IMG/VR virus record: IMGVR_UViG_3300027628_000015
Strand: one strand, 5' to 3'
Length of the DNA stretch: 64,000 nucleotides
Source of the DNA: an uncultured virus (IMG/VR IMGVR_UViG_3300027628_000015)
Taxonomy: Duplodnaviria > Heunggongvirae > Uroviricota > Caudoviricetes > Herelleviridae
Under the pieces are notes generated by a model. It made no database searches, had not been told where the DNA came from, and worked only from the letters and a program-made list of their open reading frames with translations. Position 1 is the first letter of the stretch; the number at the start of each line of letters is the position of its first letter. Below, one piece after another: positions 9,411 to 25,122 of the stretch. The translations under genes were made by a program, and so were the position numbers.

Positions 9411-9581
9411 TTGGCACCAAATGATAACCGCTTTGAAGGGCTTAGCAAAAAACAACTAGATAAGGAGCTAAGCTTTTACAAGCATTGGTATACGCAAACG
9501 ATCTGTAGAAACACTCGAGCATACATTAGATCACGTATACAGGAGCTAGAACAGCTTATTATTCAAAAGGAGGAGAAGTAA
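9411..9581 (+). CDS. small hypothetical protein (56 aa, not in ORF track)
   Basis: TTG start after AGGAG, ends EEK-stop. Confidence 0.65.
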   Translation: MAPNDNRFEGLSKKQLDKELSFYKHWYTQTICRNTRAYIRSRIQELEQLIIQKEEK

Positions 9582-9770
9582 ATGGATGGACATACGATTC
9601 TATTAGTAACAGCGGTCGGAGGGATACTTGCAATAGCTCTCCGAGTTACATATCTTATAGGCTATCGAGATGGGTCAGACGATGCAGCAAATGCAATACT
9701 GGATAAAATGGAAGAAACATTTGACCTACCTAAAGGAGATAGAGTAGGGAAACGAGGAGGAAGAAAATAA
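9582..9770 (+). CDS. small membrane protein
   Basis: N-terminal TM helix; RBS GGAGGAG. Confidence 0.75.
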   Translation: MDGHTILLVTAVGGILAIALRVTYLIGYRDGSDDAANAILDKMEETFDLPKGDRVGKRGGRK

Positions 9771-10213
9771 TGAATAACAAAGAAGCTAAAAAGAAATTGG
9801 ACGCAATATGCAATAAATATATAGGTAAGCATGAAGACGTTGATACATTAGTCTACGTTATGAAAGATGTACATGATCTACTTCAAGATAAAGTAGCTAT
9901 CGAGGATTGGACAGTATCTAAGTTAGATAGATATGGCTCAACAGTTATAGCAATAAGTGGGCATGGGGATTTAATGGCTATCTATTCTAATCATATGAAT
10001 GTTATCTATAAAATAGAGACGAATACGTTTATGTTTGATAAGTTATTCCCTGAAGATAAACTACCGCCAATTGAAGAAGCATTCAAGGAGTTGTTAAATA
10101 AATACACTAAGTTAGCTACTAAGCATATTTATGATACTTGCTTGTTTGATTCAGTAGAGGAATTAAATAAACTTAAGAAGGAATTGGAAGAGTACGAAAA
10201 ATATATCAATTAA
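9770..10213 (+). CDS. hypothetical protein
   Basis: RBS GAGGAGG; N-terminal similarity to 10466..11017. Confidence 0.8.
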   Translation: MNNKEAKKKLDAICNKYIGKHEDVDTLVYVMKDVHDLLQDKVAIEDWTVSKLDRYGSTVIAISGHGDLMAIYSNHMNVIYKIETNTFMFDKLFPEDKLPPIEEAFKELLNKYTKLATKHIYDTCLFDSVEELNKLKKELEEYEKYIN

Positions 10214-10216
10214 GGG

Positions 10217-10245
10217 TTGACGTAAAGTCAACTATTTGCTATACT
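10217..10245 (+). promoter_or_regulatory. early promoter with palindrome
   Basis: TTGACG-17-TATACT; GTTGACGTAAAGTCAAC. Confidence 0.85.
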
Positions 10246-10272
10246 AGATTTATAGACAAGGAGGGGAGAGCA

Positions 10273-10464
10273 TTGGAACCATACAATATAATGGGAGTAT
10301 ATATGGTTTACATGACCCGAACAAAGAATGGGTTTCACGGTCACTACGATAATCTTAAAACAAATATCCGTTACACATTCGATGCTCCGGGAAGAACAAA
10401 GAAACAGATCATTAAAACATTCTGGGATGCAGCTAAAAATTATAATAAACAGGAGGTAAGTTAA
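10273..10464 (+). CDS. hypothetical protein
   Basis: TTG after AAGGAGGGG. Confidence 0.7.
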   Translation: MEPYNIMGVYMVYMTRTKNGFHGHYDNLKTNIRYTFDAPGRTKKQIIKTFWDAAKNYNKQEVS

Positions 10465-10465
10465 T

Positions 10466-11017
10466 ATGAATTATGATCAAGCGATAAAGACGGTAATAAG
10501 AATTTCAGATCAGTATAGAAAAAAGATGTCTACGCTTAAAAATGTTAAACCTATGATGCGTGAGCTAAAAGAAGAGTTAGCAGGTATAGTAGACTTAAGT
10601 GGCTGGATATTTACTCACAATATTGTAATGACTAAAGGGTGGGTTAAAAGCGTTAAAGGTGATACACTATTTGAGTTCGAGAAGCAGGAAGACAACCACT
10701 TTAAGATTATCCTTGTATTTAAAGGTTGGGACGCTATCTTACCTACAGACGAACAGTTATTTAAGATTACAGCTAAGCAGCATACACTTAATGTTCTCAA
10801 GAAAGTTACAGAGGCAATCGAAAATGAAGACTGGAAGGCGTTAGAGCAATTAACTGAGCGATCAGCTGCTGGAGATGGATATGGAGACGATAACATCTAT
10901 ATAGATTTTACTCCACATACAGACTCGGACCACTGGAATGAGCGTTATGATATATCCGATATGGAGTCTATGATACGTAACGGATATGAATTTAACGTAA
11001 CAGAGGAGGAAAAGTAA
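10466..11017 (+). CDS. hypothetical protein
   Basis: RBS AGGAGG. Confidence 0.8.
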   Translation: MNYDQAIKTVIRISDQYRKKMSTLKNVKPMMRELKEELAGIVDLSGWIFTHNIVMTKGWVKSVKGDTLFEFEKQEDNHFKIILVFKGWDAILPTDEQLFKITAKQHTLNVLKKVTEAIENEDWKALEQLTERSAAGDGYGDDNIYIDFTPHTDSDHWNERYDISDMESMIRNGYEFNVTEEEK

Positions 11018-11320
11018 ATGGCTAAACATTACAATACGATAAATGAGGCGGTATACGCTTTAAATAATATACTAGACGTGTTCGTTGATCGTTTCTGTAC
11101 ATTTGAAAATGGTTGTGAGATTGTATCTGATATTACAGCGTACACTCCATTCGATACGTCTGATTGGGGAGTGTACCACGAAGATGGAGTACTTACTTTC
11201 TATAATAATGATGCAGAAGTAGTTATGCAGGTATTTGGGGATAACAACAACAGAATCTACAACTGGAAATTTTCTATATCCACTATCCAAAATATGACCG
11301 GCTTAAAGGAGGAAGAGTAG
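11018..11320 (+). CDS. hypothetical protein
   Basis: GAGGAGGAAAAGTAAATG junction. Confidence 0.8.
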   Translation: MAKHYNTINEAVYALNNILDVFVDRFCTFENGCEIVSDITAYTPFDTSDWGVYHEDGVLTFYNNDAEVVMQVFGDNNNRIYNWKFSISTIQNMTGLKEEE

Positions 11321-11542
11321 ATGACTACATGTAAAGATAAATGTCCATTCTTCAAACGTAAAGTACAAGGGACTGATTGGTACGGCTTTAAATGTACAGC
11401 TAACTTCGCTCATGGAGAAACTATGGGGCGTATAGGTGAATGGTCTAAGGAAAAGAGAGACAAAATTCTTGAAGAGAAGTGTCATGGAGATTACCAAAAC
11501 TGCCGCACATTTCAGCATGTTACTACTAAGGAGGAAAAATAA
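11321..11542 (+). CDS. small Cys-rich protein
   Basis: CPFF...C...C...C; junction motif. Confidence 0.75.
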   Translation: MTTCKDKCPFFKRKVQGTDWYGFKCTANFAHGETMGRIGEWSKEKRDKILEEKCHGDYQNCRTFQHVTTKEEK

Positions 11543-11740
11543 ATGGCTTATGAAAACATTAATCAATTAGTTGAAATGCTTAACTTATTTAATTCTGGTA
11601 ACCGTATGATGACTTATAAAGAGATAAACATGCTGGATGACTTGTTAACGGATGCTAGAGCTGATCTAGAGAATCTAAGACGAGCAAATAAAATCCAGAA
11701 TGATGCAATCAATAAGTTTTATGCTCGAAGAAATGATTAG
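11543..11740 (+). CDS. hypothetical coiled-coil protein
   Basis: junction motif. Confidence 0.75.
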   Translation: MAYENINQLVEMLNLFNSGNRMMTYKEINMLDDLLTDARADLENLRRANKIQNDAINKFYARRND

Positions 11741-11761
11741 TTAATATAAGGAGGGGAAGGA

Positions 11762-13123
11762 ATGCCATACGCACAAACTAACCTGCCACCTCCGCTTTCA
11801 ACTACAGAGAACTATCAACTACTTAAACTACTACAAGCGGACCCGGAGGATGATGAGGTAAGAGGTAAACTTATAGAAGGAAACATACGGCTAGTTATTC
11901 ATATCGCTAATAAGTTCTTCAATATAGGTACAGTTGACGAACTTACTAGTATAGGTACGATAGGATTAATCAAAGCCGCTAACAGCTTCAACTTAGATAA
12001 GAAAGTAAAGTTTGCTACATACGCCAGCACTTGTATTACTAACGAGATACTTATGTATGCAAGGAAAACAAATAAAGACCGGGTAGTTACGTCTCTGGAT
12101 ACTGTTCTCTCCTCTGATATGGACGGAGGAGAGCTTACCTTAATGGATGTGATATCTGATGAAACTATAGAAGACTTCTCCACTTCTTTCGTAGAACATG
12201 ATAACATGGAAGATGTAAAGGAGGCAATAGCTCAATTACCTGAACAGCAGCAAGAGGTACTTAAACTATACTACTCTGGAGAGCTTACCCAGACAGAAGT
12301 AGGTAAAGAACTAGGATTCAGTCAATCATATATGTCTAGGCTCCGTAATAGAGCCTTGAAAAGCGTTAGAAAGATTATTGATAAGAAGTATAAAGGTGAT
12401 GTAGTAACAGCTCATCACGTACCTAATAGAAGTATTAAAAGGGAGGAAAAGGAAATGGCAAAAGATAATAAAATTAAAAGTGTATATAGAAATGTAGAGG
12501 TTAAAACTATAGCGGAGCAAAAAGCAGTAGACTTACTTAAAGATACTCGAGATAATTATAAAGATGTAAGTGCAAAAACAGGTGTTAGCTACGCTAGAGT
12601 AGTAACGCTAGGTAAAGATTCCCGTTCTGAGTCTCTTCGTAAAGAATTAAAAGCTGAGCAGGTTAGATTAAATAGATTGAAAGCAAACAATAACAATAAA
12701 GTAAATAAATCTACAAATATAGTAGCACACCAGCCCGAGCTAACTAAAACTCCATCCGAAACATTAGGTAAATCTATATCTCATAAGGTAGAAGAGCAAC
12801 TGGCTAACAATCTTGGCGGCTCGATACAGCCTGTTTCTAGTGCTACGGCTGAAGTAGAAGGGATTAATTTTATTAATTTATCTGAAGAGACTAGAAAGAA
12901 ATGGTTTAAGAGTGCTGAGCCATCTATAGGAGCTCCACAGTATTCAGAAGAGTCGAAGAAAGGTGTTATTAAGCGATCATGCTTTATCGATGCTGCTACT
13001 AAAGGTGAGGCTGTATCAGTTAAAGACTTCTTGGATGAATTAAAGCGTGTAGGTGCTGTAGTAGACCCAGATATCGATGCAGAAGTTACATTCGAAATAA
13101 AAATTAAAGCAGTTCAAAAATAA
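11762..13123 (+). CDS. sporulation SigE/SigK-like sigma-70 factor with ~220-aa C-terminal extension
   Basis: LPPPLS; LIEGNIRLVIHIANKF; SIGTIGLIKA; ATYASTCITNEILMY; TQTEVGKELGFSQSYMSRL. Confidence 0.9.
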   Translation: MPYAQTNLPPPLSTTENYQLLKLLQADPEDDEVRGKLIEGNIRLVIHIANKFFNIGTVDELTSIGTIGLIKAANSFNLDKKVKFATYASTCITNEILMYARKTNKDRVVTSLDTVLSSDMDGGELTLMDVISDETIEDFSTSFVEHDNMEDVKEAIAQLPEQQQEVLKLYYSGELTQTEVGKELGFSQSYMSRLRNRALKSVRKIIDKKYKGDVVTAHHVPNRSIKREEKEMAKDNKIKSVYRNVEVKTIAEQKAVDLLKDTRDNYKDVSAKTGVSYARVVTLGKDSRSESLRKELKAEQVRLNRLKANNNNKVNKSTNIVAHQPELTKTPSETLGKSISHKVEEQLANNLGGSIQPVSSATAEVEGINFINLSEETRKKWFKSAEPSIGAPQYSEESKKGVIKRSCFIDAATKGEAVSVKDFLDELKRVGAVVDPDIDAEVTFEIKIKAVQK

Positions 13124-13135
13124 TTAAAAACAGGG

Positions 13136-13164
13136 TTGACTTTTTGTCAACCTTCCTCTATACT
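13136..13164 (+). promoter_or_regulatory. early promoter with palindrome
   Basis: TTGACT-17-TATACT; GGTTGACTTTTTGTCAACC. Confidence 0.85.
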
Positions 13165-13193
13165 TAAGATATACCAAACGAGGAGGAAAGTAA

Positions 13194-13439
13194 ATGAGTA
13201 TAAGATACGATTTTAGTGGTAATCCGCTTCCTTTAACTAAACTGATCGATGAGATTGATTGGGCAGGCGTTCCCTTCGAAGTAGCATTTAACTCTTGGGT
13301 CCATCATAATAGACATATGAAATGGGAGAGTAAGGATGGGTCAGAACGTAAACTATATCGTACAGACAGACCAGTATGGTTCCACAAAGAGCATGTGCAG
13401 TCAGGTAATTGGTTTATAGAAATAAAGGAGGAAAAATAA
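13194..13439 (+). CDS. hypothetical protein
   Basis: RBS GAGGAGG. Confidence 0.75.
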   Translation: MSIRYDFSGNPLPLTKLIDEIDWAGVPFEVAFNSWVHHNRHMKWESKDGSERKLYRTDRPVWFHKEHVQSGNWFIEIKEEK

Positions 13440-13440
13440 C

Positions 13441-13704
13441 ATGAGTGTTAATGAACGTATGTTAAAGGATATAGAAACTACTTCATGTCTGTGCGGAGGT
13501 ACAGCTAAACGAAGACCTCAAAACATTACCCTAAGATGGAAGGGAAAGCATATTACTATAGAGGATGTCCCTTCCTACATATGTGAAAGAAATGATAAGC
13601 ATGTTAGGCTCAGCATTCAGGTAAAGAGATGTATGAGATCAATAATGAATGAAGCTTATCGTAATGGCTGGAACCGTGTAATGTATAGAGAGGTGGAACT
13701 GTAA
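13441..13704 (+). CDS. YgiT/MqsA-type zinc-finger protein
   Basis: CLCGG...ITLRWKGKHITIEDVPSYIC pattern. Confidence 0.7.
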   Translation: MSVNERMLKDIETTSCLCGGTAKRRPQNITLRWKGKHITIEDVPSYICERNDKHVRLSIQVKRCMRSIMNEAYRNGWNRVMYREVEL

Positions 13705-13893
13705 ATGACTAGCCAACGTAAATATGTACGCTTAGATCATATTCAGGAACTATTAAAGCTTATTGGTACTCGAGACAGCTTTAATGATTGGACTTATGAG
13801 TATGACAAAGCTAATCAGAAAGTATCTAATACAGTAGCATTCATTAAACGTAATGCCAAAACACTTGATGAGCTTACTAAGGAGGAAAAATAA
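13705..13893 (+). CDS. hypothetical protein
   Basis: stop-start junction. Confidence 0.7.
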   Translation: MTSQRKYVRLDHIQELLKLIGTRDSFNDWTYEYDKANQKVSNTVAFIKRNAKTLDELTKEEK

Positions 13894-13894
13894 T

Positions 13895-14140
13895 ATGAAC
13901 AAAATTGAACAGTTTGCAGATGCAATCGCTACGTTAACAAGAGAAGCAGGGTCCAAAGAAGAAGCAGCATTAGCTATTATGAGTTATCTAGCTGGTAATT
14001 ATTACGTGTTAGATGTAGATTATATAGTTGACGATGACGATTTTTTCTATAATAATGATATCTTCCATGAAGACAATGAAACAACAGAACATCTTGAAGA
14101 GGCATTAGGCAGTAAGCCCGATTATAAGGAAGAAGAGTAA
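13895..14140 (+). CDS. hypothetical protein (paralog of next)
   Basis: SKEEA...YL.GNYY..DV...FHED shared with 14141..14365. Confidence 0.8.
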   Translation: MNKIEQFADAIATLTREAGSKEEAALAIMSYLAGNYYVLDVDYIVDDDDFFYNNDIFHEDNETTEHLEEALGSKPDYKEEE

Positions 14141-14365
14141 ATGGAAAGAAGTACAGTTGTAGTAGAAGAGATTGCTGAAATAACTAAAGCAGCCAATTCC
14201 AAAGAAGAAGCAATGTTACAGGTCATTAAATATCTATCAGGTAACTACTACCTGATAGACGTATTCTCTGTAAAGAGAGAACATGGAGCTCGTTTTCATG
14301 TAATGGATGAGTTCCACGAAGATACAATGCCTACACTATCTGAATTACTCGAGGAGGAAGAGTAA
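14141..14365 (+). CDS. hypothetical protein (paralog of previous)
   Basis: same shared motif. Confidence 0.8.
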   Translation: MERSTVVVEEIAEITKAANSKEEAMLQVIKYLSGNYYLIDVFSVKREHGARFHVMDEFHEDTMPTLSELLEEEE

Positions 14366-14677
14366 ATGAGAAAAGAATATTCATTCACCGAAGAGTCAAT
14401 AGTCATTAAAACTCCAAGAGGTTACCTATATGATGTATGGGAACACCTTAATGATGAACAAGAGAACTTTGAATTTACAGATGACATTCGCTATGCTCAA
14501 AAGTTCTACCCACACCTAAGAGTTACTAAAGCCCCTAAGTACTTATATCATTTAGAGACAGGAGCTTCAATAGATACAATCGAAGAAGCGGCAGCATACC
14601 TAAATGGAAAACTACAAAAGCTCACAATGACCCAAACAAGAGTATATGAAGTTACAGACACAGAGGAGGGAAAGTAA
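14366..14677 (+). CDS. hypothetical protein
   Basis: junction motif. Confidence 0.75.
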   Translation: MRKEYSFTEESIVIKTPRGYLYDVWEHLNDEQENFEFTDDIRYAQKFYPHLRVTKAPKYLYHLETGASIDTIEEAAAYLNGKLQKLTMTQTRVYEVTDTEEGK

Positions 14678-14899
14678 ATGAGTAAAAAAGTATTGAATGG
14701 TCAAAGTCTAGATCATGTATCAGCAATTATCGATGGACTGTTAGATAGAGTCCGTGAGTTTAAGGTAGGAAAAGATGGAGTAACATCTATTCAGGTATTT
14801 ACCAATAACCCTAACTACCCATTTGTACTACATGTTACACGTAATGGAGAAAAGTATAAGTATCATTCACCGGCAATTCGTATAAAGGAGGGAAAGTAA
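14678..14899 (+). CDS. hypothetical protein
   Basis: junction motif. Confidence 0.75.
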   Translation: MSKKVLNGQSLDHVSAIIDGLLDRVREFKVGKDGVTSIQVFTNNPNYPFVLHVTRNGEKYKYHSPAIRIKEGK

Positions 14900-14900
14900 T

Positions 14901-15233
14901 ATGTTTAATAAAAATGATGTAACATTCGAACGTTTCCTATACTTTATAAGAGTATATATAGCAGATACTATTAGTCAGCTTGAGGAGGAATCCAAAGAGT
15001 GTAACAGAAAAGCTAAAAAGCTGAAAGAAAAGGCAGATAAAGACTTAACCATTGAAGATATTGCAGATACTTTATTAAAAGACAGTGAAGCTACTGGAGG
15101 AATAGTACAGCTAGGGAAATTGTTAGCTCAAATTGAAAGTACTTTAGCAATGCACCCTCACCTATATAAGAAAATGAAAAAGGTAGTAGCTGAAGAAAAG
15201 AAGAAAGCAACATATAAGGAGGAAAGTAAATGA
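14901..15233 (+). CDS. hypothetical protein
   Basis: junction motif. Confidence 0.75.
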   Translation: MFNKNDVTFERFLYFIRVYIADTISQLEEESKECNRKAKKLKEKADKDLTIEDIADTLLKDSEATGGIVQLGKLLAQIESTLAMHPHLYKKMKKVVAEEKKKATYKEESK

Positions 15234-15541
15234 ATGAGGATATGGAAGATTTCAATAGTATAGGAACCACAACAGGAAGGCTTAGTTCAACAAAGCCAAA
15301 TATAGCAGGAACACCTAAAACCGAAACTAAAACATATTGGAGAGAAATATCATTCAGTACAGCTGTTAGTATATGGTCAGGTCGTAGAGTAACGATTAAA
15401 TGTGAAATTGAAGCAGATAACGGTTACGGAGAAAAAGAAAGGGTAGAGCTTATGTTTCCGGGTAACCTACCTTTAAATGGATTATCTCATACAATGGCAA
15501 ATCAAGGTAAATGGTATGCATTAGAAATGGAGGAAAAGTAA
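15230..15541 (+). CDS. hypothetical protein
   Basis: junction motif. Confidence 0.75.
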   Translation: MNEDMEDFNSIGTTTGRLSSTKPNIAGTPKTETKTYWREISFSTAVSIWSGRRVTIKCEIEADNGYGEKERVELMFPGNLPLNGLSHTMANQGKWYALEMEEK

Positions 15542-16120
15542 ATGAAAGCTATTTCATTCTCAATGTACTTAGACACATCTAAAAACATTCGATCAATTAG
15601 AGAGGACTTAGAAAAGGTAGGATTCAAAGAAGAAGCTACTAACACTAACTACCTAATTAAATATCCTCACCCTAGACTAATGAAGATATCTGAAATACCA
15701 TTAGAGATCGTAGCCTATGAGAAGTTCGGTTTCTTATATATGAATGTATCAGAAGCAAACCCTGAAATGGTACCAAGACGTTATGACTCATTAAAAGAAT
15801 TTGATGTATTCGATATGTTTATGTCCACTTCAATAGGTCCAATGATTACAGAACTAAACCTAGATGTAGCAGAGTTAAACATTAAGACATATACAGACTA
15901 TTCAGCTACACTACTACAGAACAAGTGGACTCCAGTAGAGAACGGTCTCATTAGAGATATGTATGAGTGTAAAGAAATAGAAGAGACCGTATACTTTAAT
16001 AAAACTCCTATAGGTAGTGATCGTGATATATGGGCGTATGTATGTACACCTAATGAACCTATGCCACTAGGAGAACATCTTAAGATATTAGATAGATCAG
16101 GCTTTGACTTAGCAGAATAA
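15542..16120 (+). CDS. hypothetical protein
   Basis: junction motif, 192 aa. Confidence 0.8.
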   Translation: MKAISFSMYLDTSKNIRSIREDLEKVGFKEEATNTNYLIKYPHPRLMKISEIPLEIVAYEKFGFLYMNVSEANPEMVPRRYDSLKEFDVFDMFMSTSIGPMITELNLDVAELNIKTYTDYSATLLQNKWTPVENGLIRDMYECKEIEETVYFNKTPIGSDRDIWAYVCTPNEPMPLGEHLKILDRSGFDLAE

Positions 16121-16135
16121 AAGGAGGAAAAGTAA

Positions 16136-16390
16136 ATGAATAAAGACTTAAATGTATCATGGACCACTATAGAATATATAGAGTATGCAGCAGGAAATAA
16201 TATAAGAGCCTTTGGCTTAGACACAAATACTCGTAAAGGTCCAGTAACTCGTATAGAAGTAAATGCTTCAGAAGATGTAAATGGATACCGTATCAGAATC
16301 TACACAGATAAGAATGAAGTTACTCCATATAAAACAATATTCACTAACTATGTAGAGATGACTCATTGCTATGATAAGGAGAAAAAGTAA
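16136..16390 (+). CDS. hypothetical protein
   Basis: AAGGAGGAAAAGTAAATG. Confidence 0.75.
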   Translation: MNKDLNVSWTTIEYIEYAAGNNIRAFGLDTNTRKGPVTRIEVNASEDVNGYRIRIYTDKNEVTPYKTIFTNYVEMTHCYDKEKK

Positions 16391-16537
16391 TTGTCAAGTA
16401 GTAAAGGAATCCCTATGAGTAAAGAGTGTATAGACTGTAAGCTACCTATACCACGTTATATATACTATGTAAATGATAAGTTGTGTCATAAGTGTAGATA
16501 TGAGAGAGCATGCCTTAAAAGAAGGGAAGGAAAGTAA
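16391..16537 (+). CDS. small zinc-finger-like protein (48 aa, not in ORF track)
   Basis: TTG directly after stop; CIDC...CHKC; ends EGK-stop. Confidence 0.6.
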   Translation: MSSSKGIPMSKECIDCKLPIPRYIYYVNDKLCHKCRYERACLKRREGK

Positions 16538-16750
16538 ATGAAAATGCTTATAGAATTAGATAAAGAAGATTTAGTAGCACTAGTAAAAGGTTCATCCCCT
16601 AACTCTAGTATAATGAGTCATCCTATTATTAAAGAGCATGGGACATTTAATGGTTCTCAAGATAGATGGGATTGGAACTATAAGCTGTCTAATCTTACTG
16701 AAGAACAGTTACTAACTATATATAGTATGTGTAAACAAAGTTGGAAGTAG
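16538..16750 (+). CDS. hypothetical protein
   Basis: junction motif. Confidence 0.75.
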   Translation: MKMLIELDKEDLVALVKGSSPNSSIMSHPIIKEHGTFNGSQDRWDWNYKLSNLTEEQLLTIYSMCKQSWK

Positions 16751-17070
16751 TAGCTCACCACACTATACACTAAACACTTTAACACACTAAAGCTAGGTAG
16801 ACAACAGTGAGCCCCGGGAATGCATCTCGACCCCTTGTCTACCTAGAGTATAATTGTCGCATCTTTCAGAATTGTTTGCCGCTGGGACACAATTCTAACA
16901 ATTCACACTATTCTAAATATTCTAATAATAGCCGCTAATTGTCTATATACTATAGGAAACGTCACAGACTTTAAAATATTCTATACTATATAGGCAATAT
17001 TTTTAAATAATGGGTTGACGTAAAGTCAATGGCATGGTATACTAGGTATATAGATAAGGAGGAGATATTA

Positions 17071-17361
17071 ATGAGTAAACGCTTAGCGATTTATAATAAG
17101 CACATGGAAGCGTATGAGACATTTGTTCAAGGAGTAGCGGAAGGCGTATATAAGATAGGTAACACATACAGTAGCTCCCTACAATTCAGCAAACAGTACC
17201 TAGGCAGTAACTACTCATACCTAATGAAGCAGGTAGGGAAGACTGAAAAGCAGTTGCACAAGGATGTTATAGCCGCTGTCAATAGCTATGTTATTACTAA
17301 CCTAGATGTTATGGTTTATGGTCAGAAAGTTCACCAGATCAATAAGTTGGTATTAAGTTAA
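17071..17361 (+). CDS. early hypothetical protein
   Basis: ATG after AAGGAGGAG. Confidence 0.8.
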   Translation: MSKRLAIYNKHMEAYETFVQGVAEGVYKIGNTYSSSLQFSKQYLGSNYSYLMKQVGKTEKQLHKDVIAAVNSYVITNLDVMVYGQKVHQINKLVLS

Positions 17362-17421
17362 AATAACGGTTGACTTTAAATCAACCACATGCTATACTTA
17401 GTATATAAGGAGGAGATAGTA

Positions 17422-17595
17422 ATGGCAAAGTTTGAGAAGGTATATGTGCTGCAAGTATTCAATGTAAATGGTGTATTGATCGGTGAAGATGACTGGAGCC
17501 GTATAGAGCCGGGTGAGTTAGCTATTGAAGAAGCACTCAGTAAGTATATACATGCGGAGTATGCAGTCATCGAGGAACGTTTCAGAAAACTATAA
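17422..17595 (+). CDS. early hypothetical protein
   Basis: ATG after AAGGAGGAG. Confidence 0.75.
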   Translation: MAKFEKVYVLQVFNVNGVLIGEDDWSRIEPGELAIEEALSKYIHAEYAVIEERFRKL

Positions 17596-17598
17596 GGA

Positions 17599-17796
17599 GT
17601 GATCATCATGTCAGAACAGCATAGAGCGTTCGATGAAATATATTATCTATTAGTAGCTCACGATATGAGCCCTACAGATGCCCAGATAACCGTTATAGAT
17701 TACTTTATGGGGCAAGCGGCTATCATGGCACAGGAAGAGCCCTCAGAGGGTGAAATGGAAGCTATACAGTTAGTCGAAGAATTGTTAGAAAATTAA
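17599..17796 (+). CDS. small acidic hypothetical protein
   Basis: RBS AAGGAG (start probably 17608). Confidence 0.7.
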   Translation: MIIMSEQHRAFDEIYYLLVAHDMSPTDAQITVIDYFMGQAAIMAQEEPSEGEMEAIQLVEELLEN

Positions 17797-17924
17797 TTAA
17801 AAGGTATTGACTTTACGTCAACCGCATGCTATAATTGTATTATAGATAAGGTTAGTAATTCCCGGTAAGTTACTATAGTAGCTCACTGGTTATATAAAAA
17901 CACAAATTGGGGAGGAACATTATT

Positions 17925-18497
17925 ATGATTACAATTGGAGTATTAATAGGTTTGGCTGCTGTGGTGCTTTATATCTCAGGTATTAAGAAGTTAATTAAGG
18001 AGAAGCGGAAGGCTATACTGCCTCTTATACTAGGTACCTTGTTAGCATTCATGGGTGCAGGGTTTATGGCTACTGGTGCTGGCAGTAACGTTAAGGATGA
18101 AGCAGTAGTAACAGATAGTAGTAGCTCACCAGACAAGGAAGAGCCAGCCGCTAAGGAAGAGAAGAAAGAAGAAGTAGCTCCTGAGAAAGTTGAAGAAGAT
18201 GTAGTAGCTCCCGAGCCGGAACCCGAGCCGGAACCCGAAGTAGTATTAGAGCCTGTTACACTTGGTTCTGGTAAGTTTTCAGTAGGTGATGATATTCCAG
18301 CTGGTCGCTATGTAGTAACTACTCAGGAACGTGGAGGAAACTTTGCTACGTATGATAGCTGGGGCTTACTAGATGCTAATGAAATGTTAGGGACCGCTCC
18401 AGACTACTATGTAAATAACATTACAGTGAATCTTGAAGAAGGTGGGCAGGTCGAGATCAGCGGATTAAATGCAGTTCTCTTTACACCTAAGCAATAA
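17925..18497 (+). CDS. two-TM membrane protein with Pro/Glu linker and C-terminal beta domain
   Basis: two TM helices, PEPEPEPE linker, LGSGKFSVGDDIPAGRY motif. Confidence 0.8.
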   Translation: MITIGVLIGLAAVVLYISGIKKLIKEKRKAILPLILGTLLAFMGAGFMATGAGSNVKDEAVVTDSSSSPDKEEPAAKEEKKEEVAPEKVEEDVVAPEPEPEPEPEVVLEPVTLGSGKFSVGDDIPAGRYVVTTQERGGNFATYDSWGLLDANEMLGTAPDYYVNNITVNLEEGGQVEISGLNAVLFTPKQ

Positions 18498-18987
18498 CTT
18501 ATATAGTATAATAAAGTAATCACAGTCCGTTAGTCAGTAGCGTTAGTAGCTCACTGGGTAGCGGACTTTTTATATAGTAGCTCACCAGACGGACGAGGAG
18601 CTTGTTCTAGGGGTAGTAGCTCACTACATAGGTAAATACATAGTAGCTCACTAGAAATGCTTAGTAGCTCCCCACACAGGGCTTAAAACAGTAGTAGCTC
18701 CCTACACCGGGCAGTGTGCCGCCGGGCTGGGCTGCTGTTGGGCTATGGTCCCTCATGTATACGTGTATATACTATATAGGAAGAAACACGGTTTTTTAAA
18801 TTTATTGCATTTTGTTGTTGACTTTATATCAATAAGGATGTAAGATAAGAGTATACCAAGTGAGAGGAGATGAAAGCCGCTAAACAAATTAAATAAAAAA
18901 GTTTTAAAAAGTGGTTGACTTTAAATCAACTGCATGATAGAATTAAGGTAGTTAGAAAATATCATATTAAAGGGAGATGTTGTTATA

Positions 18988-19620
18988 ATGAAAAAATTCA
19001 ATGTTGTTGAAAATGCTAAGGTTGTTGCATCGGTTAAATTTAAGGAAGGTATCCGCTTCGCTGTTCAAACTGCTTCTAATGAAGTGAATATGTACGGTCG
19101 TACTAAATACGATGCTTCTTTCTTAGCGGCAATCGTTACTTACAATCCAAAATTTGATAGTGTGCAGGTGTTCACGGTTATCGAGCGTGTTGCAGATATT
19201 AATGATATTGCAGAAGTTAACCACATGGTTAATGACCGCTTGGCACGTATCACTACTGGGCAGGCTTATGAAACTAATGAGCTTGTAACAATCATCATGC
19301 ATAATGAAATGGAGTACTACGGAGGCACAGGCTTTCCAAGTGAAGAAACTAGACAGCTTCGAGCGTTGAAGCTAGAAAACTTCTTTATGAAAAAGTACAT
19401 AGATATTGTGGCTGGGATTTCAGAGGACACAACTTCTATAGAAGAGCTTGACTTGTCAATCCGCTCTTATAACTGCTTGAAACGTGCCGGCGTTGATACA
19501 ATTGGACAGTTGAAAAAGTTAACACGTCCAGAGCTTGCAAGAATCCGCAACCTTGGAGCACGTAGCCAAGCGGAAGTGATCGAGGCACTAGAAGAAAAAT
19601 TTAGTTTCTCGATTGCATAA
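18988..19620 (+). CDS. protein with C-terminal RNA polymerase alpha-CTD (RpoA C-terminal) domain
   Basis: SIEELDLSIRSYNCLKRAGVDTIGQL...RNLGARSQAEV matches RpoA CTD. Confidence 0.9.
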   Translation: MKKFNVVENAKVVASVKFKEGIRFAVQTASNEVNMYGRTKYDASFLAAIVTYNPKFDSVQVFTVIERVADINDIAEVNHMVNDRLARITTGQAYETNELVTIIMHNEMEYYGGTGFPSEETRQLRALKLENFFMKKYIDIVAGISEDTTSIEELDLSIRSYNCLKRAGVDTIGQLKKLTRPELARIRNLGARSQAEVIEALEEKFSFSIA

Positions 19621-19690
19621 AAAAGTTTTAAAAGGTGGTTGACTTTTAATCAACCACCTGATATACTTAAGATAATCCAATAAGGAGACG

Positions 19691-19927
19691 ATGTACATGG
19701 AAAAGTTAATAATGGTTGAAGTGTTCTATGCAGACAATAGGACCGCTAAACTTATTGAAAGTAATGAATGGGTTTATGGTATCTGGTCTAAAGGTGGTGT
19801 TCCATACTACTTACAAAGAACGCTTGCACCGATTCCCCGGAATACTTGGATAGGTTTTAAGTCGTACGAAGTGGATAGTGATTACAATATCATTGAACAC
19901 ATCGAAACACAAGGTAAAACGTGGTAA
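19691..19927 (+). CDS. early hypothetical protein
   Basis: own promoter and RBS AAGGAG. Confidence 0.75.
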   Translation: MYMEKLIMVEVFYADNRTAKLIESNEWVYGIWSKGGVPYYLQRTLAPIPRNTWIGFKSYEVDSDYNIIEHIETQGKTW

Positions 19928-20022
19928 AAAAAAAGTTTTAAAAAGTGGTTGACTTTAAATCAACAGCATGATATACTTAAGATAGTTAATAAAACAAATT
20001 AAATTAAAGGGAGATGTTTTAA

Positions 20023-20412
20023 ATGGCATTATCACAAACATTATTAAATCTTATCGAACGTGCAGAACGTAAAGGCTCAGCGGTTAAACGTGTAAGAGAA
20101 GGCGCTGTAATGGATAGCAGTTCTTGGGGCATGTCACCGCTTGAAAGAAATGAATATATCCGCTCAACGCCTATGATTAATCAATGGGAGGTTGAGTACT
20201 ATATTGAATCATACCCGGTATATGTTGTCAAGCATTATGATACGCTTATCGCTCGTTTTGAATGTGTGGAAGGTGAATGGCAACTAACAAATTATTACGG
20301 TGAAAGCAATTCAGATAGAGACGCTTTAAACGGTCTATGCTCATACTTTGGAGTTAAAAGAGGTTTCCGCTACCGTCCTTCAATTGGTTCATTTGAAGAG
20401 GTGATGAACTAA
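20023..20412 (+). CDS. early hypothetical protein
   Basis: own promoter and RBS AAGGGAG. Confidence 0.8.
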   Translation: MALSQTLLNLIERAERKGSAVKRVREGAVMDSSSWGMSPLERNEYIRSTPMINQWEVEYYIESYPVYVVKHYDTLIARFECVEGEWQLTNYYGESNSDRDALNGLCSYFGVKRGFRYRPSIGSFEEVMN

Positions 20413-20579
20413 TGAAAAAGGTTAAACAGTATAAAGGGTTTATCATTGCAGAATGTAAAGAAGATGACCAGCTACATATCTTCACTAAAGAAGAGTGGAG
20501 CTATGGTAAGGGTCTACGCTACGAAGAGCACTATGCCGGCTCAATGCAAGAAGCAAAAGATTTTATCGATTCTTATTAA
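20412..20579 (+). CDS. small early protein (55 aa, not in ORF track)
   Basis: TAATG overlap, RBS GAGGTG; MKKVKQYKGFIIAE... Confidence 0.7.
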   Translation: MKKVKQYKGFIIAECKEDDQLHIFTKEEWSYGKGLRYEEHYAGSMQEAKDFIDSY

Positions 20580-20658
20580 AAAGTTTTAAAAGGTGGTTGA
20601 CTTTTAATCAACCACCTGATATACTTAAGATAGTTAGAAAATACTTAATAGGGAGCTG

Positions 20659-20958
20659 TTGAACATGGAACAAGTTAAATGGGGCTGGAAAATCATTAAG
20701 GATAATATCTTTAACCCTCGCTGGGATTGGGATAAGGACATGAAAGGAACTGTCAAAGGTGACTACCAAGGCGGAAAACACCGCTACCGTTTGAAAGATG
20801 ATGACGGTAATATCTATTATTATATCTTCTCTGATATCGATGTAAACGAAGGTACGGAAGGACAGCTATTCAGACCGCTTGATTGGGCTATGGCTTATGC
20901 TGGTTGTACTACTATCGAATACAAAGATGCAGAAACTGGAGAATATAAAGTTTTGTAA
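20659..20958 (+). CDS. early hypothetical protein
   Basis: own promoter; RLKDDDGNIYY...PLD...AGCTTIEY motif. Confidence 0.8.
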   Translation: MNMEQVKWGWKIIKDNIFNPRWDWDKDMKGTVKGDYQGGKHRYRLKDDDGNIYYYIFSDIDVNEGTEGQLFRPLDWAMAYAGCTTIEYKDAETGEYKVL

Positions 20959-21047
20959 AAAGTTTTAAAATGTGGTTGACTTTAAATCAACCACATGCTA
21001 TACTTAAGATAGTTAGAAAATACTTAATAAATAAGGAGATGTTGTTA

Positions 21048-21419
21048 ATGTTAAACGTAGTTTGTAATGTATGTGATGGAGATGCTTTTTTATCTGATAG
21101 TGTAAAGTGTGACCCTTGTAATAGCACTGGATGGACTGGAGTTCCTGATAATCAAATTGTATATGTTAATGCTTACCGTGTCACTAGAGAATTTGGAGGA
21201 CATGAAGAAGGCGGCTGGTGGTATGACAACTATGAATGTATAGAAGTCTTCCCTGTCAAAAATAAAGCGGCTGATGTTATGGCTGATGCTTTACTAGAAG
21301 AGCATTCTCACATCGTTCATGGTGATATTTCAAGCGTTTTAGGTGGAGCTGAATTACGTGTCTTAATAGAAGAAAAGCCTAAAGAGAGTGAAACTAGAGA
21401 ACGTCCACACTACGAATAA
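21048..21419 (+). CDS. early protein with CxxCxG zinc-finger and GGxEEGGWWY domain
   Basis: CNVCDG...CDPCNSTG; ATG after AAGGAG. Confidence 0.75.
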   Translation: MLNVVCNVCDGDAFLSDSVKCDPCNSTGWTGVPDNQIVYVNAYRVTREFGGHEEGGWWYDNYECIEVFPVKNKAADVMADALLEEHSHIVHGDISSVLGGAELRVLIEEKPKESETRERPHYE

Positions 21420-21524
21420 AAAAGTTTTAAAAGGTGGTTGACTTTCCATCAACCACCTGCTATAATAAAGGTATAGCAAGGCAGTAATAAAAAAAATACT
21501 TAAATTAAAAGGAGATTGATTATT

Positions 21525-22061
21525 ATGTTAGAAACTAAAGAGCTAAATTTATTAGGTGAATTAAACGATGAGCAAGGCATTCTAGAAGATTTCATTTCAG
21601 ATAATGCAGGTTCAAGCGCTTATATTTGTGACGCAATCACTGAAGCGGCTGACGGTGCGGTGCCTATCTCAAATCATGATATCTGGAAAAGCGCTTATGA
21701 TATCTCAGAGTACATTGAGGACGCAATCAGCGAAGGCTTAGCACCAGTACAAAGCGGTAATGTTGATTTAATTAAAATCTTTACAGCTGGATACTATCAG
21801 TACTACAGCCAAGCGCTTCATACTAACCTAGATATCATGGTATATAATTATATGGCTGAAGAGATTAACACATACTTGGACCGCTTGGACGAAGATATTT
21901 TAGATGAGCTAAACATTGACGATATTGAAAGCCGCTTGGAAGATGAGGCGGACGACTTCGACCATAACAATACATTCGATTTCATAGACGAAATCATTGA
22001 ATCTATCAAAGAATATATTGACGAATTGGTAGAGGAAATTGCAGAGGAAGACGAAGAATAA
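21525..22061 (+). CDS. Ocr-like acidic DNA-mimic anti-restriction protein
   Basis: DAITEAADGAVP..DIW vs T7 Ocr [12 protein letters not shown]..DIF; very acidic, ends EEDEE. Confidence 0.75.
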   Translation: MLETKELNLLGELNDEQGILEDFISDNAGSSAYICDAITEAADGAVPISNHDIWKSAYDISEYIEDAISEGLAPVQSGNVDLIKIFTAGYYQYYSQALHTNLDIMVYNYMAEEINTYLDRLDEDILDELNIDDIESRLEDEADDFDHNNTFDFIDEIIESIKEYIDELVEEIAEEDEE

Positions 22062-22132
22062 ATTTTATAATAGCGGTTGACTTTTAATCAACCGCTATGC
22101 TATACTAAATATAGTTAGAAGGAGTTGACAAA

Positions 22133-22267
22133 ATGGCTCGGTTAGCAAATAAGCTTGGCTTAACAGAAACTCAGATTCTAGCAACATTCATAGCTACTAT
22201 GGTAGGGTTAGCGCTGGTAGTGATAGGATGTAAAGCAATTGGTTTCTATTATATGTTACATAACTAA
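22133..22267 (+). CDS. small membrane peptide (44 aa, not in ORF track)
   Basis: own promoter, RBS AAGGAG, one TM helix. Confidence 0.65.
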   Translation: MARLANKLGLTETQILATFIATMVGLALVVIGCKAIGFYYMLHN

Positions 22268-22282
22268 AAGGAGATGATAGAA

Positions 22283-22432
22283 ATGAGAGTACAAAATAAT
22301 ACGTCCGCTGTTGATATCCTTAAGGCTCTAGAGAAAAATTCTGCTAAGCTTGACAAATACCAAAAGAAGAATGCAAGCATGTTCGCTAAGATTGACAACA
22401 TGTTCAGTAAATTCTTTAAAAAAGTTTTGTAA
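22283..22432 (+). CDS. small basic protein (49 aa, not in ORF track)
   Basis: RBS AAAGGAG; MRVQNNTSAVDILK... Confidence 0.6.
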   Translation: MRVQNNTSAVDILKALEKNSAKLDKYQKKNASMFAKIDNMFSKFFKKVL

Positions 22433-22497
22433 TAGTGTTGACTTTCCGTCAAGGTGATGCTATAATTAAGATATACCAAAGGAAAGGAATTGATAAA

Positions 22498-22869
22498 ATG
22501 TTGGGTTACAAAAACCGCTCGGTTCGTACTCAAAAATCTAAAGTGTATTACAATCTACACAAGCACTTGTTCAGTGTTCAGCAGGAAGGCTTGGTGGTCC
22601 TGCATACAGAGGCTCTGAAGCTGGTAAACGTACACTTCCAAGTGAGTGAGGCAGGCAGACAGAGAGTCCTAGCAGAAGGCAGAAAGAACGTCCACGCTTA
22701 TGTGAACGGAGTCTTCCAAGGTGAATACGCAGGGGAGCCACTAGAAGGCTTTAGAGAGGCTTACTACAATCCGCACAAGGTTGACAGCTTCGTAGATAAG
22801 GAAACGCTGGAGCCGCTATATGAAGCGGATACAGTATACTTAATTGATAGAAGAATATTCTACAAATAA
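22498..22869 (+). CDS. conserved phage hypothetical protein
   Basis: KVYYNLHK...SEAGRQRV...KNVHAYV motif. Confidence 0.8.
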   Translation: MLGYKNRSVRTQKSKVYYNLHKHLFSVQQEGLVVLHTEALKLVNVHFQVSEAGRQRVLAEGRKNVHAYVNGVFQGEYAGEPLEGFREAYYNPHKVDSFVDKETLEPLYEADTVYLIDRRIFYK

Positions 22870-22934
22870 ATATAAATGAGGGTTGACGTAAAGTCAACTC
22901 TCTGCTATAATTAAATTATACCAAAGGAAAGGAT

Positions 22935-23186
22935 TTGATGATTTTGTATCGAACGACAACTGAATTACTAGAAGCAGCTAAGAAACTAAAGGAGGCTGCT
23001 AAGCTTGTCCAAGACGCTACGCAGCATCGAGAGTGGTGGGATAAGAAGGTAGATGTTCTGAGAGCGGTTAATGGAGCTCTAGAGAGCGGAGCCTTCACAG
23101 GTGATGCATATGCAGAGCTGAAGGAAGCAAGGTATATCATAGGATATGCAGAGGCTAAGGCAGGCGGCTACTTCAGCTGGGAATAA
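22935..23186 (+). CDS. early hypothetical protein
   Basis: own promoter and RBS. Confidence 0.75.
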   Translation: MMILYRTTTELLEAAKKLKEAAKLVQDATQHREWWDKKVDVLRAVNGALESGAFTGDAYAELKEARYIIGYAEAKAGGYFSWE

Positions 23187-23213
23187 TAGAGGGAGGATTT
23201 ATTCCTCTCTTTT
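23187..23213 (+). terminator. intrinsic terminator
   Basis: AGAGGGAGGA...TCCTCTCT-TTTT. Confidence 0.7.
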
Positions 23214-23316
23214 ATAGAAAAAGTTTTATATATGTGTTGACTTTACGTCAAGAACATGAGATAATATGTATATAGCAAGGCAATAACAAAATAATATGAA
23301 TAAGGGAGATGTTCAC

Positions 23317-23544
23317 ATGAACGAATTAAAAATTAATATTGAGGCTCTTGAAGACAGAATCGAAAGACTAGAAGAGAAGCTAGACCACGCTAGCACACCA
23401 GAGAGAGCGGAGCTGATAGCAGAACGCTTACAGGATGCACAAACAGAGCTTGAAGGCTTGAGAGAGGATTATGAAGCTCAAATGGAATACGATGGAATGA
23501 ACGCTTGGGAGTATAACGGGATAAGCCAGAAGGATTTCTACTAA
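23317..23544 (+). CDS. acidic coiled-coil early protein
   Basis: own promoter; ATG after AAGGGAG. Confidence 0.75.
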   Translation: MNELKINIEALEDRIERLEEKLDHASTPERAELIAERLQDAQTELEGLREDYEAQMEYDGMNAWEYNGISQKDFY

Positions 23545-23760
23545 GACAAGGGAGGGAGCGACAAGCTTCCTCTTTTTTACATTCTTCGACAAACCCCTCC
23601 CCGTACCATTTTTTACCATAAAGACAAGGGTCCCCCTGTATAGTCTCTACCTAGGGCTCGAATTTTTCCACAAAAATTTTTTCGTAAATATAAGGGTATC
23701 TTAAACGTAAATACAAATACAAATAAAGAGAGGCTATAATAACCTCCCTCACCTTTCCTC

Positions 23761-23823
23761 CTATAACGACAACACAAGCCACAGTAATAGAATAATGATG
23801 ATCGCTCCAAATAACCAGTTCAT
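23761..23823 (-). CDS. 20-aa hydrophobic micropeptide
   Basis: MNWLFGAIIIILLLWLVLSL; RBS AAGGGAG. Confidence 0.5.
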   Translation of the reverse strand: MNWLFGAIIIILLLWLVLSL

Positions 23824-23851
23824 AAGGATAGTCTCACTCCCTTCCGACCCA

Positions 23852-23956
23852 CTACTGATCGGCTGGTAAAAGGATTAAAAAGATGATAAGATATACTGCT
23901 GCTATCAGAACCATTGCCATATCAGATATATGCATATCCTTCTTAGATGTCTTCAT
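23852..23956 (-). CDS. 34-aa membrane micropeptide
   Basis: MKTSKKDMHISDMAMVLIAAVYLIIFLILLPADQ; RBS GGGAGGGGG. Confidence 0.55.
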   Translation of the reverse strand: MKTSKKDMHISDMAMVLIAAVYLIIFLILLPADQ

Positions 23957-24111
23957 ACTCTAACCCCCTCCCGTACTTATATACAGGATTAGTTTACCCC
24001 TCCCCCGTGATTATATAAGTGGGACTCCTAACCAGCCAGAACAGAAAAAAGAGGGTATAAATATATACCCTCAAATTTTACAGGCAAAACTATAGCTTCC
24101 ATATTTTTCCA

Positions 24112-25122
24112 TTACCTCTTACGTAAGAGCAATAAGATCAAACGGAATAGCAGCAATGGAGAAATTGTCTTTACAGGCGGTGGAACTGGCGTTGGTTCCG
24201 TTTCAGGTGCAGGTGATGGAATCGGAACAGGCTCAGGTTCTGGTAAAGGTTCTGGTACCGGGTCCTCTTTTGGGGGCTCTACAGGCTCCTCTACGGTTAG
24301 ATCGAGAATGTGGGTACCTTTGGTATAGTCGGCAATAGCAATGGACTTTAAAAGAGCTACTGCGCCCGTCATATGAGGTGTAGCCATTGACGTTCCACTC
24401 ATACGAGCATATTTACCATTAGGGTACGTAGAGAATACGTCAACTCCCGGAGCTAAGATATCTACCTCACTGTTCGTATTCGAAAACTCTGCTAACATAC
24501 CGCTAAAGTCTACAGCACCTACTTCCATTACTTCAGGATAAGCTCCCGGATATGAAAGTTCTTCTGTAGCTTCGTCCCCGTCCCCTTCGTTACCAGCTGC
24601 TGCAACAATAACAATACCTGCTGCTACCGCTTCCTGAACAGCTTTACGTAAAGCGTAAGAGTGCTGTCCACCTAGAGACATGTTGATCACGTTTACCTTT
24701 TGCTTAACGGCAAAGCGGATAGCGGAGACCGTCCAGTTCATATCCCCTGTTCCGTCATCCTTTAGAGCTTTAAGTGCAAGGATTTTAGCTTTAGGAGCTA
24801 CACCTACGATACCTTCACCAGTATTAGTAGCTGCGATCGTACCTGCTACGTGTGTACCGTGTCCGTGACCGTCCATATAGTCTCCTTTACCAGTGAAGTC
24901 TTTCCCACCGATAATATTGTCTTTCAGGTCCGGGTGGTTATAGTCTACGCCTGTATCGATAATTGCTACAACTACGCCTTTCCCTTCATTCCCTGCATTC
25001 CATTGAGACTGAGCATTGATCATCTTTACTCCGTCTGGAATGGTTTCAGCTGAGAATGTGTGTACAGATTGTACCTTAGTTGGGATAAGTCGAACCTCAC
25101 GATTTCTTTTGAAAATGGACAT
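24112..25122 (-). CDS. S8 subtilisin-family serine protease (ISP-like) with Pro-rich linker and hydrophobic tail
   Basis: catalytic motifs IIDTG, HGTHVAG, GTSMATP; N-terminal RLIP motif. Confidence 0.95.
   Translation of the reverse strand: MSIFKRNREVRLIPTKVQSVHTFSAETIPDGVKMINAQSQWNAGNEGKGVVVAIIDTGVDYNHPDLKDNIIGGKDFTGKGDYMDGHGHGTHVAGTIAATNTGEGIVGVAPKAKILALKALKDDGTGDMNWTVSAIRFAVKQKVNVINMSLGGQHSYALRKAVQEAVAAGIVIVAAAGNEGDGDEATEELSYPGAYPEVMEVGAVDFSGMLAEFSNTNSEVDILAPGVDVFSTYPNGKYARMSGTSMATPHMTGAVALLKSIAIADYTKGTHILDLTVEEPVEPPKEDPVPEPLPEPEPVPIPSPAPETEPTPVPPPVKTISPLLLFRLILLLLRKR

Follow-up and report, generated by a model that had tools for sequence, protein, structure and literature searches.

It is well established that bacteriophages provide precise tools to act against bacterial RNA polymerase (RNAP), AsiA, Gp2 and gp67 being examples. 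The last of these, from the Staphylococcus phage G1, blocks the binding of the RNAP alpha subunit's C-terminal domain (alpha-CTD) to UP elements at rRNA promoters according to the passages of a paper that deal with it, where phage promoters with an extended -10 element are proposed to escape gp67 (PMC3694059). In passages of a second paper, residues E254, L256, L258, V260, R261, Y263, N264, K267 and R268 of the Bacillus subtilis alpha-CTD are placed at the interface with the regulator Spx, and the contact with Spx is described as keeping alpha-CTD off promoter DNA (PMC8501982). Here we report on a phage gene that carries an alpha-CTD outside any alpha subunit, found at 18988-19620 on the + strand of a 64,000-nt stretch of DNA from an uncultured virus of the Herelleviridae (IMG/VR record IMGVR_UViG_3300027628_000015), the whole of which is called the window below. 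The product of 210 amino acids is predicted to consist of two independently folded parts joined by a short flexible linker, and it is quite probably a mimic of the host alpha-CTD, a core claim common to the readings weighed below in which it occupies DNA, serves as a decoy or works as an adaptor. The gene and its parts are as follows.

18988-19620, + strand: coding sequence of 210 amino acids with ATG start (open reading frame confirmed), comprising an orphan N-terminal domain, a short linker and an alpha-CTD.
18970-18976, + strand: Shine-Dalgarno sequence AAGGGAG, seen in the sequence 11 nt 5′ of the ATG.
18988-19416, + strand: N-terminal domain (N-domain), residues 1-143, without known family or fold (from the model and searches).
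19417-19434, + strand: flexible linker, approximately residues 144-149 (in the full-length model, the predicted local distance difference test score, pLDDT, is <50 at residues 145-151).
19435-19602, + strand: alpha-CTD, residues 150-205 (Pfam, PDB sequence and fold matches).

The full-length AlphaFold model, built on an alignment of 14 sequences, has a mean pLDDT of 82.8 and a predicted template modelling score (pTM) of 0.63. Its linker of ~7 residues varies in length among relatives, being 15 residues longer in the member P0005 and 5 longer in P0006 according to the alignment. The C-terminal part was recognized by Pfam as RNA_pol_A_CTD (PF03118) at residues 147-203, with E 4e-21 and 74.9 bits, the curated cut-off being 23.8. 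RNAP alpha chains account for 46 of the 47 distinct PDB sequences matched at E <= 0.01, with 1z3e_B on top (E 2.4e-13), and the best of these matches are alpha-CTD fragments of 73-79 residues. When modelled, residues 148-210 adopt the compact helical fold with two helix-hairpin-helix (HhH) motifs and superpose on 1z3e_B, an alpha-CTD bound to Spx, with Z 10.8 and a root mean square deviation of 1.9 A over 62 residues at 45% identity, while further alpha-CTDs match the same model at Z 7.9-8.8.

Residues were numbered through alignment offsets, +106 to the Escherichia coli alpha chain, where query residues 151-202 pair with chain residues 257-308, and +102 to 6wvj_A, a chain of 314 residues. By the first offset, phage R159, N162, C163, G190, R192 and S193 are equivalent to E. 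coli R265, N268, C269, G296, K298 (K to R) and S299, which we take to be the DNA-contact residues of the "265 determinant", and phage E153 and D155 presumably fill the acidic positions of the E. coli "261 determinant" that faces sigma region 4. By the second offset, residue types agree with the positions named in PMC8501982, and the phage equivalents of the Spx interface are E152, L154, L156, I158, R159, Y161, N162, K165 and R166, eight of the nine being identical and V260 being replaced by I. Compared with four Bacillota RpoA proteins (translations from mislabelled "phage" records), 16-18 of 19 residues are identical at 150-168, only 1-4 of 17 at 169-185, 5 of 8 at 186-193 and 3-5 of 10 at 194-203, and the domain as a whole is ~50% identical (31/61) to Bacillota alpha-CTDs, which are 84-97% identical to one another. 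To judge from these alignments, the phage alpha-CTD is a conservation mosaic, in which the working face appears to be kept and the remainder to have drifted. Among the seven family members that carry the fusion, R159, G190, S193, R166 and the RNLG motif are invariant, and the positions of E153 and D155 are both acidic in five. The position of Y161 is held by Y in four, F in two and S in one, and F stands there also in one host RpoA (MT835508).

The rest of the protein has nothing of an alpha subunit. No family of the alpha N-terminal domain (alpha-NTD; RNA_pol_L or RNA_pol_A_bac) was found in the Pfam scan of the protein, even at E <= 1, and the 50 best matches in the fold comparison of the modelled N-domain include no RNAP alpha-NTD. 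Full-length rpoA models of NCBIfam reach 44-65 bits against cut-offs of 228-523, through their C-terminal ends only; the rpoA equivalog TIGR02027, for instance, scores 64.3 bits against a cut-off of 227.8 over model positions 235-291 of 298. Without an alpha-NTD, and with rpoA models matched only at their C-terminal ends, the protein is no alpha subunit, even though its orthologue bears that name in the database. We rejected an identity as full-length RpoA also because the protein has 210 residues, compared with ~310-330 for full-length RpoA, and because its N-domain is an unrelated alpha/beta fold. An earlier note on this DNA had proposed that the last ~65 residues are an intact alpha-CTD and that the first ~140 do not resemble alpha-NTD, and both proposals are borne out, the one by the PF03118 and 1z3e_B matches and the other by the Pfam and fold results just given.

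Modelled alone on an alignment of 20 sequences, the N-domain reaches pLDDT 90.6 and pTM 0.85, with helices 16-33, 74-90 and 119-142 packed on a three-stranded sheet (44-53, 58-66 and 98-104). It has no match in Pfam or PHROG, and its profile reached E 0.95 at best against PDB sequences. Foldseek against the PDB gave nothing at E <= 0.001 (best E 0.21, template modelling score, TM, by query <= 0.36), an exhaustive VIA search of 48,161 chains gave at Z >= 5 only the de novo designed 7bqc (Z 5.5) and nothing at Z 8, and the ESM Atlas gave no usable feature match, all structure rows having TM <0.5 by query; weak or absent fold matches of this kind are no proof of a new fold. A single match was found in BFVD, a viral protein of 137 residues with 30% identity and TM 0.79/0.82, which from its length and identity is probably the homologue in phage SP-10. 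Two labels that came up were not used, namely DUF6808, seen in three of 14 members at E 0.04-0.05 and below cut-off, and "UPF0305 family", a source label on the member P0013 that is not among the Pfam families found in members.

The N-domain family is very small. An exhaustive HMMER search with residues 1-143 against 1.84 billion cluster representatives returned 11 proteins at E <= 0.001, four of 205-220 residues and seven of 134-153; among these 11 no other fusion partner was seen, and none is longer than 220 residues. A word-indexed search of 5.8 billion proteins added two close relatives (97% and 91% identity) and P0014. The clusters hold one to three members each, several on contigs of 62-144 kb, a Herelleviridae-like size, and every family member starts with MKKF. 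Of the 14 members in the alignment, Pfam recognizes PF03118 in seven, these being P0001-P0006 and the window protein, and the fusion is thereby kept in six relatives at identities down to 36%. A relative of P0004 (93%) lies on a 140.9-kb viral contig of 72% A+T, as the first gene of a rightward block and behind an extended -10 promoter-like site, so that phages whose hosts differ considerably in base composition have retained the fusion. A locus search with P0006 returned no related contig. In a tree of 20 N-domains (19 different, with P0007 cut at its C-terminal end and P0009, from a 670-nt contig, possibly incomplete), the fused forms are interspersed with the free-standing ones. Several branches of this tree are long, and of the 16 inner ones 6 are open. 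The idea that the two parts are a split gene elsewhere was rejected, as the SP-10 gene that follows the free-standing N-domain is not an alpha-CTD.

The gene is real, and both of its halves are under purifying selection. Compared with its counterpart in the Bacillus phage vB_BmeM-Goe8 (Goe8), the synonymous divergence (dS) is 0.273 and the nonsynonymous divergence (dN) 0.024, giving a dN/dS of 0.087, and by part the ratio is 0.089 for the N-domain and 0.084 for the linker with alpha-CTD. Relatives of 18700-20500, 85-99% alike, occur in contigs of one transcriptomic and three soil metatranscriptomic runs, including a contig of 3,176 nt that spans 18700-19647 with 66 differences; these contigs belong to relatives of the phage, and their presence in RNA libraries is not proof of transcription.

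The window belongs to a Herelleviridae myophage, with PHROG matches to terminase, portal, major head protein, tail sheath and nucleotide-metabolism genes. At the DNA level, the region and Goe8 (Bastillevirinae, Goettingenvirus; listed host Bacillus megaterium DSM 319) share 88% identity, and from this relative we infer a Bacillus-type host. The Goe8 record of 161,583 nt, the only contig returned by a locus search with the window protein, holds the gene twice, at 1959-2588 and 156106-156735, and its positions 1-6588 equal 154148-160735 with 100% identity over the 6,588 nt compared. Since the two ends of the record are identical and the gene is in both, it lies in a long terminal repeat, which measures 7,436 nt if it extends to the end of the record and of which the gene is the fifth coding sequence. 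Terminal repeats of Herelleviridae are known, from work on SPO1, to hold the earliest genes, those for host takeover. In the window the repeat is located by orthology with Goe8, with Goe8 1-256 matching 16816-17073 and Goe8 6204-8585 matching 22419-24771, and one copy is present: the stretch 15529-24771 is made of the DNA that precedes the right repeat in Goe8, one copy of the repeat and the DNA found after the left repeat, and the repeat was probably collapsed in the source assembly. The features around the gene are listed here.

16816-23650 (end approximate), no strand: equivalent of the Goe8 terminal repeat, the early, host-takeover region (Goe8 matches).
18818-18846, + strand: promoter P1, TTGACT-17-TAAGAT, 9/12, without TGn (consensus scan; conserved in Goe8).
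18897-18914, + strand: A/T-tract UP-like element AAAAGTTTTAAAAAGTGG, directly 5′ of the P2 -35.
18915-18943, + strand: main promoter P2, TTGACT-17-TAGAAT, 10/12, with TGn extended -10 (consensus scan; conserved in Goe8).
19639-19667, + strand: promoter of the next early gene, beginning 19 nt past the stop codon, with no terminator between.

All promoters here are consensus matches only. The 26 bases upstream of P2 are 92% A+T, compared with 61% in the window, and we take the tract AAAAGTTTTAAAAAGTGG to resemble the UP-element consensus. A consensus scan of 17000-23500 gave 38 promoter-like sites against 19.6 +/- 4.8 in shuffles, and a pattern scan of the + strand gave 19 sites, 18 of them within 4770-22883, with TGn in 15 of the 19 and 77-92% A+T in the 26 bases upstream, again compared with 61% in the window. 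The element AAAAGTTTTAAAA-N-GTGGTTGAC occurs in six exact copies within 18897-21442, none being expected by chance, and its first copy is at P2. The two tandem strong promoters claimed by the earlier note are thus both present and conserved in Goe8, but only P2 is of the strong array type; likewise the gene is the first of a sub-array of six promoters with AAAAGTTTTAAAA, but it is not the first early gene as had been supposed, seven promoters of the array type lying upstream at 7587-17807 and a weaker one at 4770. The structural premise of that note is supported: the alpha-CTD is intact, the N-domain that bears it is not of alpha type, and the setting is one of early expression among promoters preceded by A/T tracts.

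The -35 of P2 lies inside an inverted repeat, GGTTGA-N7-TCAAC. Other promoters of the array (17366-17388, 19636-19662 and others) also have their -35 within an inverted repeat, GGTTGA-N7-TCAACC, with arms of sometimes 9 nt, and on the minus strand this repeat reads as a hairpin followed by a T-run, one such site being called in the scan. From its sequence, the repeat could be a terminator for antisense transcription or an operator for a dimeric regulator. Within the 490-nt gap 5′ of the gene, TAGTAGCTC(A/C)C is repeated directly in six irregularly spaced copies (18538-18712), with a G+C-rich stretch after them; the copies lie 280-450 nt 5′ of the gene, and the whole gap is 92% identical to Goe8. 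Rfam gave nothing at E <= 1 on 18300-19100. Possible roles for these TAGTAGCTC repeats are those of iterons bound by a protein or of a marker close to the early region of the repeat.

The neighbours are in keeping with an early region, which is rich in small orphan genes that each have a promoter of their own. Four genes downstream and in the same promoter array lies an Ocr-like anti-restriction gene (21516-22061, + strand; 181 residues, very acidic, PHROG E 1.3e-35). Located 6 kb upstream, at 11762-13123 on the + strand, is a gene for a phage sigma factor of 453 residues, the first ~210 of which are similar to SigE and SigK, sigma factors of sporulation (NCBIfam E 7e-54, with scores under the equivalog cut-offs). 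A C-terminal extension of ~240 residues follows, and the gene has an array-type promoter of its own nearby. Phage-borne sigma factors of the sporulation type are known.

Which role would such a protein play? Our tentative choice, possible rather than probable, is that the protein acts in trans as an alpha-CTD mimic, which would occupy UP-type DNA and thereby disfavour the UP-dependent promoters of the host. Put more broadly, and held with the same reserve, a detached host-like alpha-CTD may have been set on a domain of new fold that docks on a host target, and may reprogramme transcription through competition for UP elements or through sequestration of Spx-type regulators. The product would be made early and at high level, within the first minutes of infection, and the free alpha-CTD would bind A/T-rich minor-groove DNA of the UP type just upstream of the -35, beside region 4 of sigma A, in competition with the tethered alpha-CTDs of the polymerase itself. 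UP-dependent promoters would then be depressed, above all the host rRNA promoters, and the early promoters of the phage would be largely insensitive because of their near-consensus -35/-10 hexamers and TGn extended -10. For its part, the N-domain would oligomerise for avidity or bind a host target. What speaks for this reading is that the surfaces by which the host alpha-CTD works on DNA, namely the face formed by the loop and helix 1 and the second hairpin (RNLG..S), are kept. To this can be added the early setting in a terminal repeat, the nearby Ocr-like gene, the tandem promoters, the strong Shine-Dalgarno sequence and the precedent of G1 gp67, whose described outcome would be equalled here through mimicry instead of through binding of sigma.

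Several points weigh against it. An isolated alpha-CTD binds UP DNA weakly, so that competition would require oligomerisation or a very high copy number. The strongest UP-like elements are found on the early promoters of the phage itself, and a competitor for DNA might hurt the phage, or might instead be an activator or autoregulator. Two of the presumed DNA-contact positions vary among the seven fused members, the K298-equivalent being R in five and N in two, and the N268-equivalent being K in one. The free-standing form in SP-10-type phages shows that the N-domain is more than a scaffold for alpha-CTD; it presumably binds a partner in its own right. Moreover, the conserved face also serves the contacts with Spx and sigma, and its conservation therefore does not single out DNA binding. 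As DNA, sigma A and Spx share this one face, sequence alone cannot separate a decoy, an adaptor and a competitor for DNA.

In a rather doubtful alternative, which corresponds to the first option of the earlier note, the protein would be a decoy for factors that dock on helix 1 of alpha-CTD, above all Spx, and either the stress programme of the host may be disabled or the alpha-CTDs of the polymerase may be freed for the UP-like elements of the phage. All nine interface residues are kept (eight identical, one conservative), the best match in both sequence and fold is the alpha-CTD chain of an Spx complex, and a host-like face on a drifted remainder suits the mimic of a protein contact. The equivalent of Y263, a residue critical for Spx, varies in the fused family, however, and titration of Spx is therefore not the function of the whole family; of the changes listed above only the S is a clear loss, F being found also in a host RpoA. 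In addition, the K267-equivalent is N in one of the seven, and the Spx interface as described does not include the RNLG..S hairpin, whose invariance is better explained by DNA binding or by stability of the fold. If the N-domain were instead to dock on core polymerase, sigma A or the phage sigma factor, alpha-CTD could read AAAAGTTTTAAAA and raise transcription from phage promoters, an adaptor role that the earlier note gave as its second option and that we consider unlikely. The layout of globular domain, flexible linker and alpha-CTD is that of alpha itself, the acidic positions equivalent to the E. coli "261 determinant" are kept as E153 and D155, six identical UP-like elements begin at the gene, the free-standing N-domain elsewhere implies binding of its own, and the gene of a phage sigma factor lies 6 kb upstream. 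Such an adaptor has to be set against an N-domain for which sequence and fold searches gave no similarity to alpha-NTD or to a known RNAP-binding protein, a linker that is short (~7 residues) and variable in length, and early promoters that are already near consensus and need little help.

The alpha-CTD might also be a mere HhH module in an ordinary DNA-binding protein of the phage, engaged in replication, packaging or binding of the TAGTAGCTC repeats and without a link to host transcription. Domains of the alpha-CTD type do occur in unrelated contexts, such as gp26 of the Microbacterium phage Mazun and the defence kinase PglW, and six conserved repeat copies lie 280-450 nt upstream, yet the helix-1 face is identical to the host at 16-18 of 19 positions, far beyond what a generic HhH domain needs, and Mazun gp26 and the alpha-CTD-like PHROG families are much more diverged; this makes an ordinary binder improbable. 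Hardly credible, and disfavoured, is the idea of a captured host rpoA fragment without function, in essence annotation noise. It would suit the merely automatic name of the Goe8 homologue, but it conflicts with a dN/dS of 0.087 at dS 0.27, with a fusion kept in six relatives down to 36% identity (one on the contig of 72% A+T), and with a gene that has its own promoters and Shine-Dalgarno sequence.

If the broader reading given above is true, the protein would be the first case of an alpha-CTD mimic serving a virus as a weapon of host takeover, and the N-domain would found a new family of binders of RNAP or its regulators. Should the protein compete for UP elements or for Spx-type regulators, it would moreover offer a simple genetic means of manipulating, in Bacillota, UP-dependent transcription and the Spx pathway, it would bring a new small domain, the N-domain, with a host target, and it would explain why the early promoters of these phages combine an extended -10 with UP-like tracts.

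How the locus relates to described and deposited systems can be set out as follows. In open-access papers and bioRxiv, we found no description of a phage-encoded alpha-CTD and no paper on vB_BmeM-Goe8, and the comparative paper on jumbo phages PMC7824862 has no passage about alpha-CTD. The domain is known and an orthologue is deposited under a wrong name; the architecture and the likely role are undescribed. Bacterial DNA that is filed as phage can create false matches to a "phage alpha-CTD", as in four records marked UNVERIFIED or UNVERIFIED_ORG (OR846589, OR844994, OR848276 and MT835508), which we set aside because they hold full-length RpoA frames of 314-332 residues and are bacterial DNA. 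Among proteins of other function, an internal segment (~770-857) of the models of PglW, the BREX/Pgl kinase, is matched by residues 139-201 (PADLOC E 1.2e-5, NCBIfam E 8e-4), and from this similarity PglW seems to contain an alpha-CTD-like domain.

The orthologue is Goe8_c00050 (QDP42789.1), which is 95.7% identical over 210 residues and has an equal position and equal promoters; it differs in carrying only the automatic name "RNA polymerase subunit alpha", a name that is misleading and is corrected here, as the protein cannot be an alpha subunit. With the alpha-CTD of RpoA (PF03118; 1z3e chain B) the phage domain shares sequence, fold and the positions of contact with DNA, sigma and Spx, whereas it stands outside an alpha subunit, its helices 2-4 have drifted and its C-terminal tail is different. 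SP-10 BS_SP10_049 and its counterpart in SBSphiC share the N-domain at 31-32% identity over residues 1-143, but the SP-10 protein is free-standing, with 137 residues and without an alpha-CTD. G1 gp67 likewise comes from a Herelleviridae phage, is made early from a consensus promoter and has the alpha-CTD/UP-element step as its proposed target, yet gp67 binds region 4 of sigma A whereas the protein described here would mimic alpha-CTD. The likeness would be one of function only and no homology is claimed; the Pfam and PHROG scans of the protein named no family of the gp67 type, the gp67 sequence itself not having been compared.

Finally, Mazun gp26 with its relatives and PHROG 28674 are likewise cases in which a phage encodes an alpha-CTD behind an N-terminal part specific to phages. 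Mazun gp26, named "DNA binding protein" (141 residues, 1306-1731), is an independent case, in which an unrelated N-terminal part of ~70 residues precedes PF03118 (residues 72-127, E 1.7e-13); the phages Morrill, Atraxi and TrippleS share this fusion. PHROG 34844 and 28674 ("RNA polymerase") give weak alpha-CTD matches. In gp26, its relatives and PHROG 28674 the N-domains are unrelated to ours, the alpha-CTDs are more diverged and helix 1 is not host-like. The protein of the window is set apart from these other phage alpha-CTDs by its near host-identical face, its orphan N-domain and its early setting in a terminal repeat.

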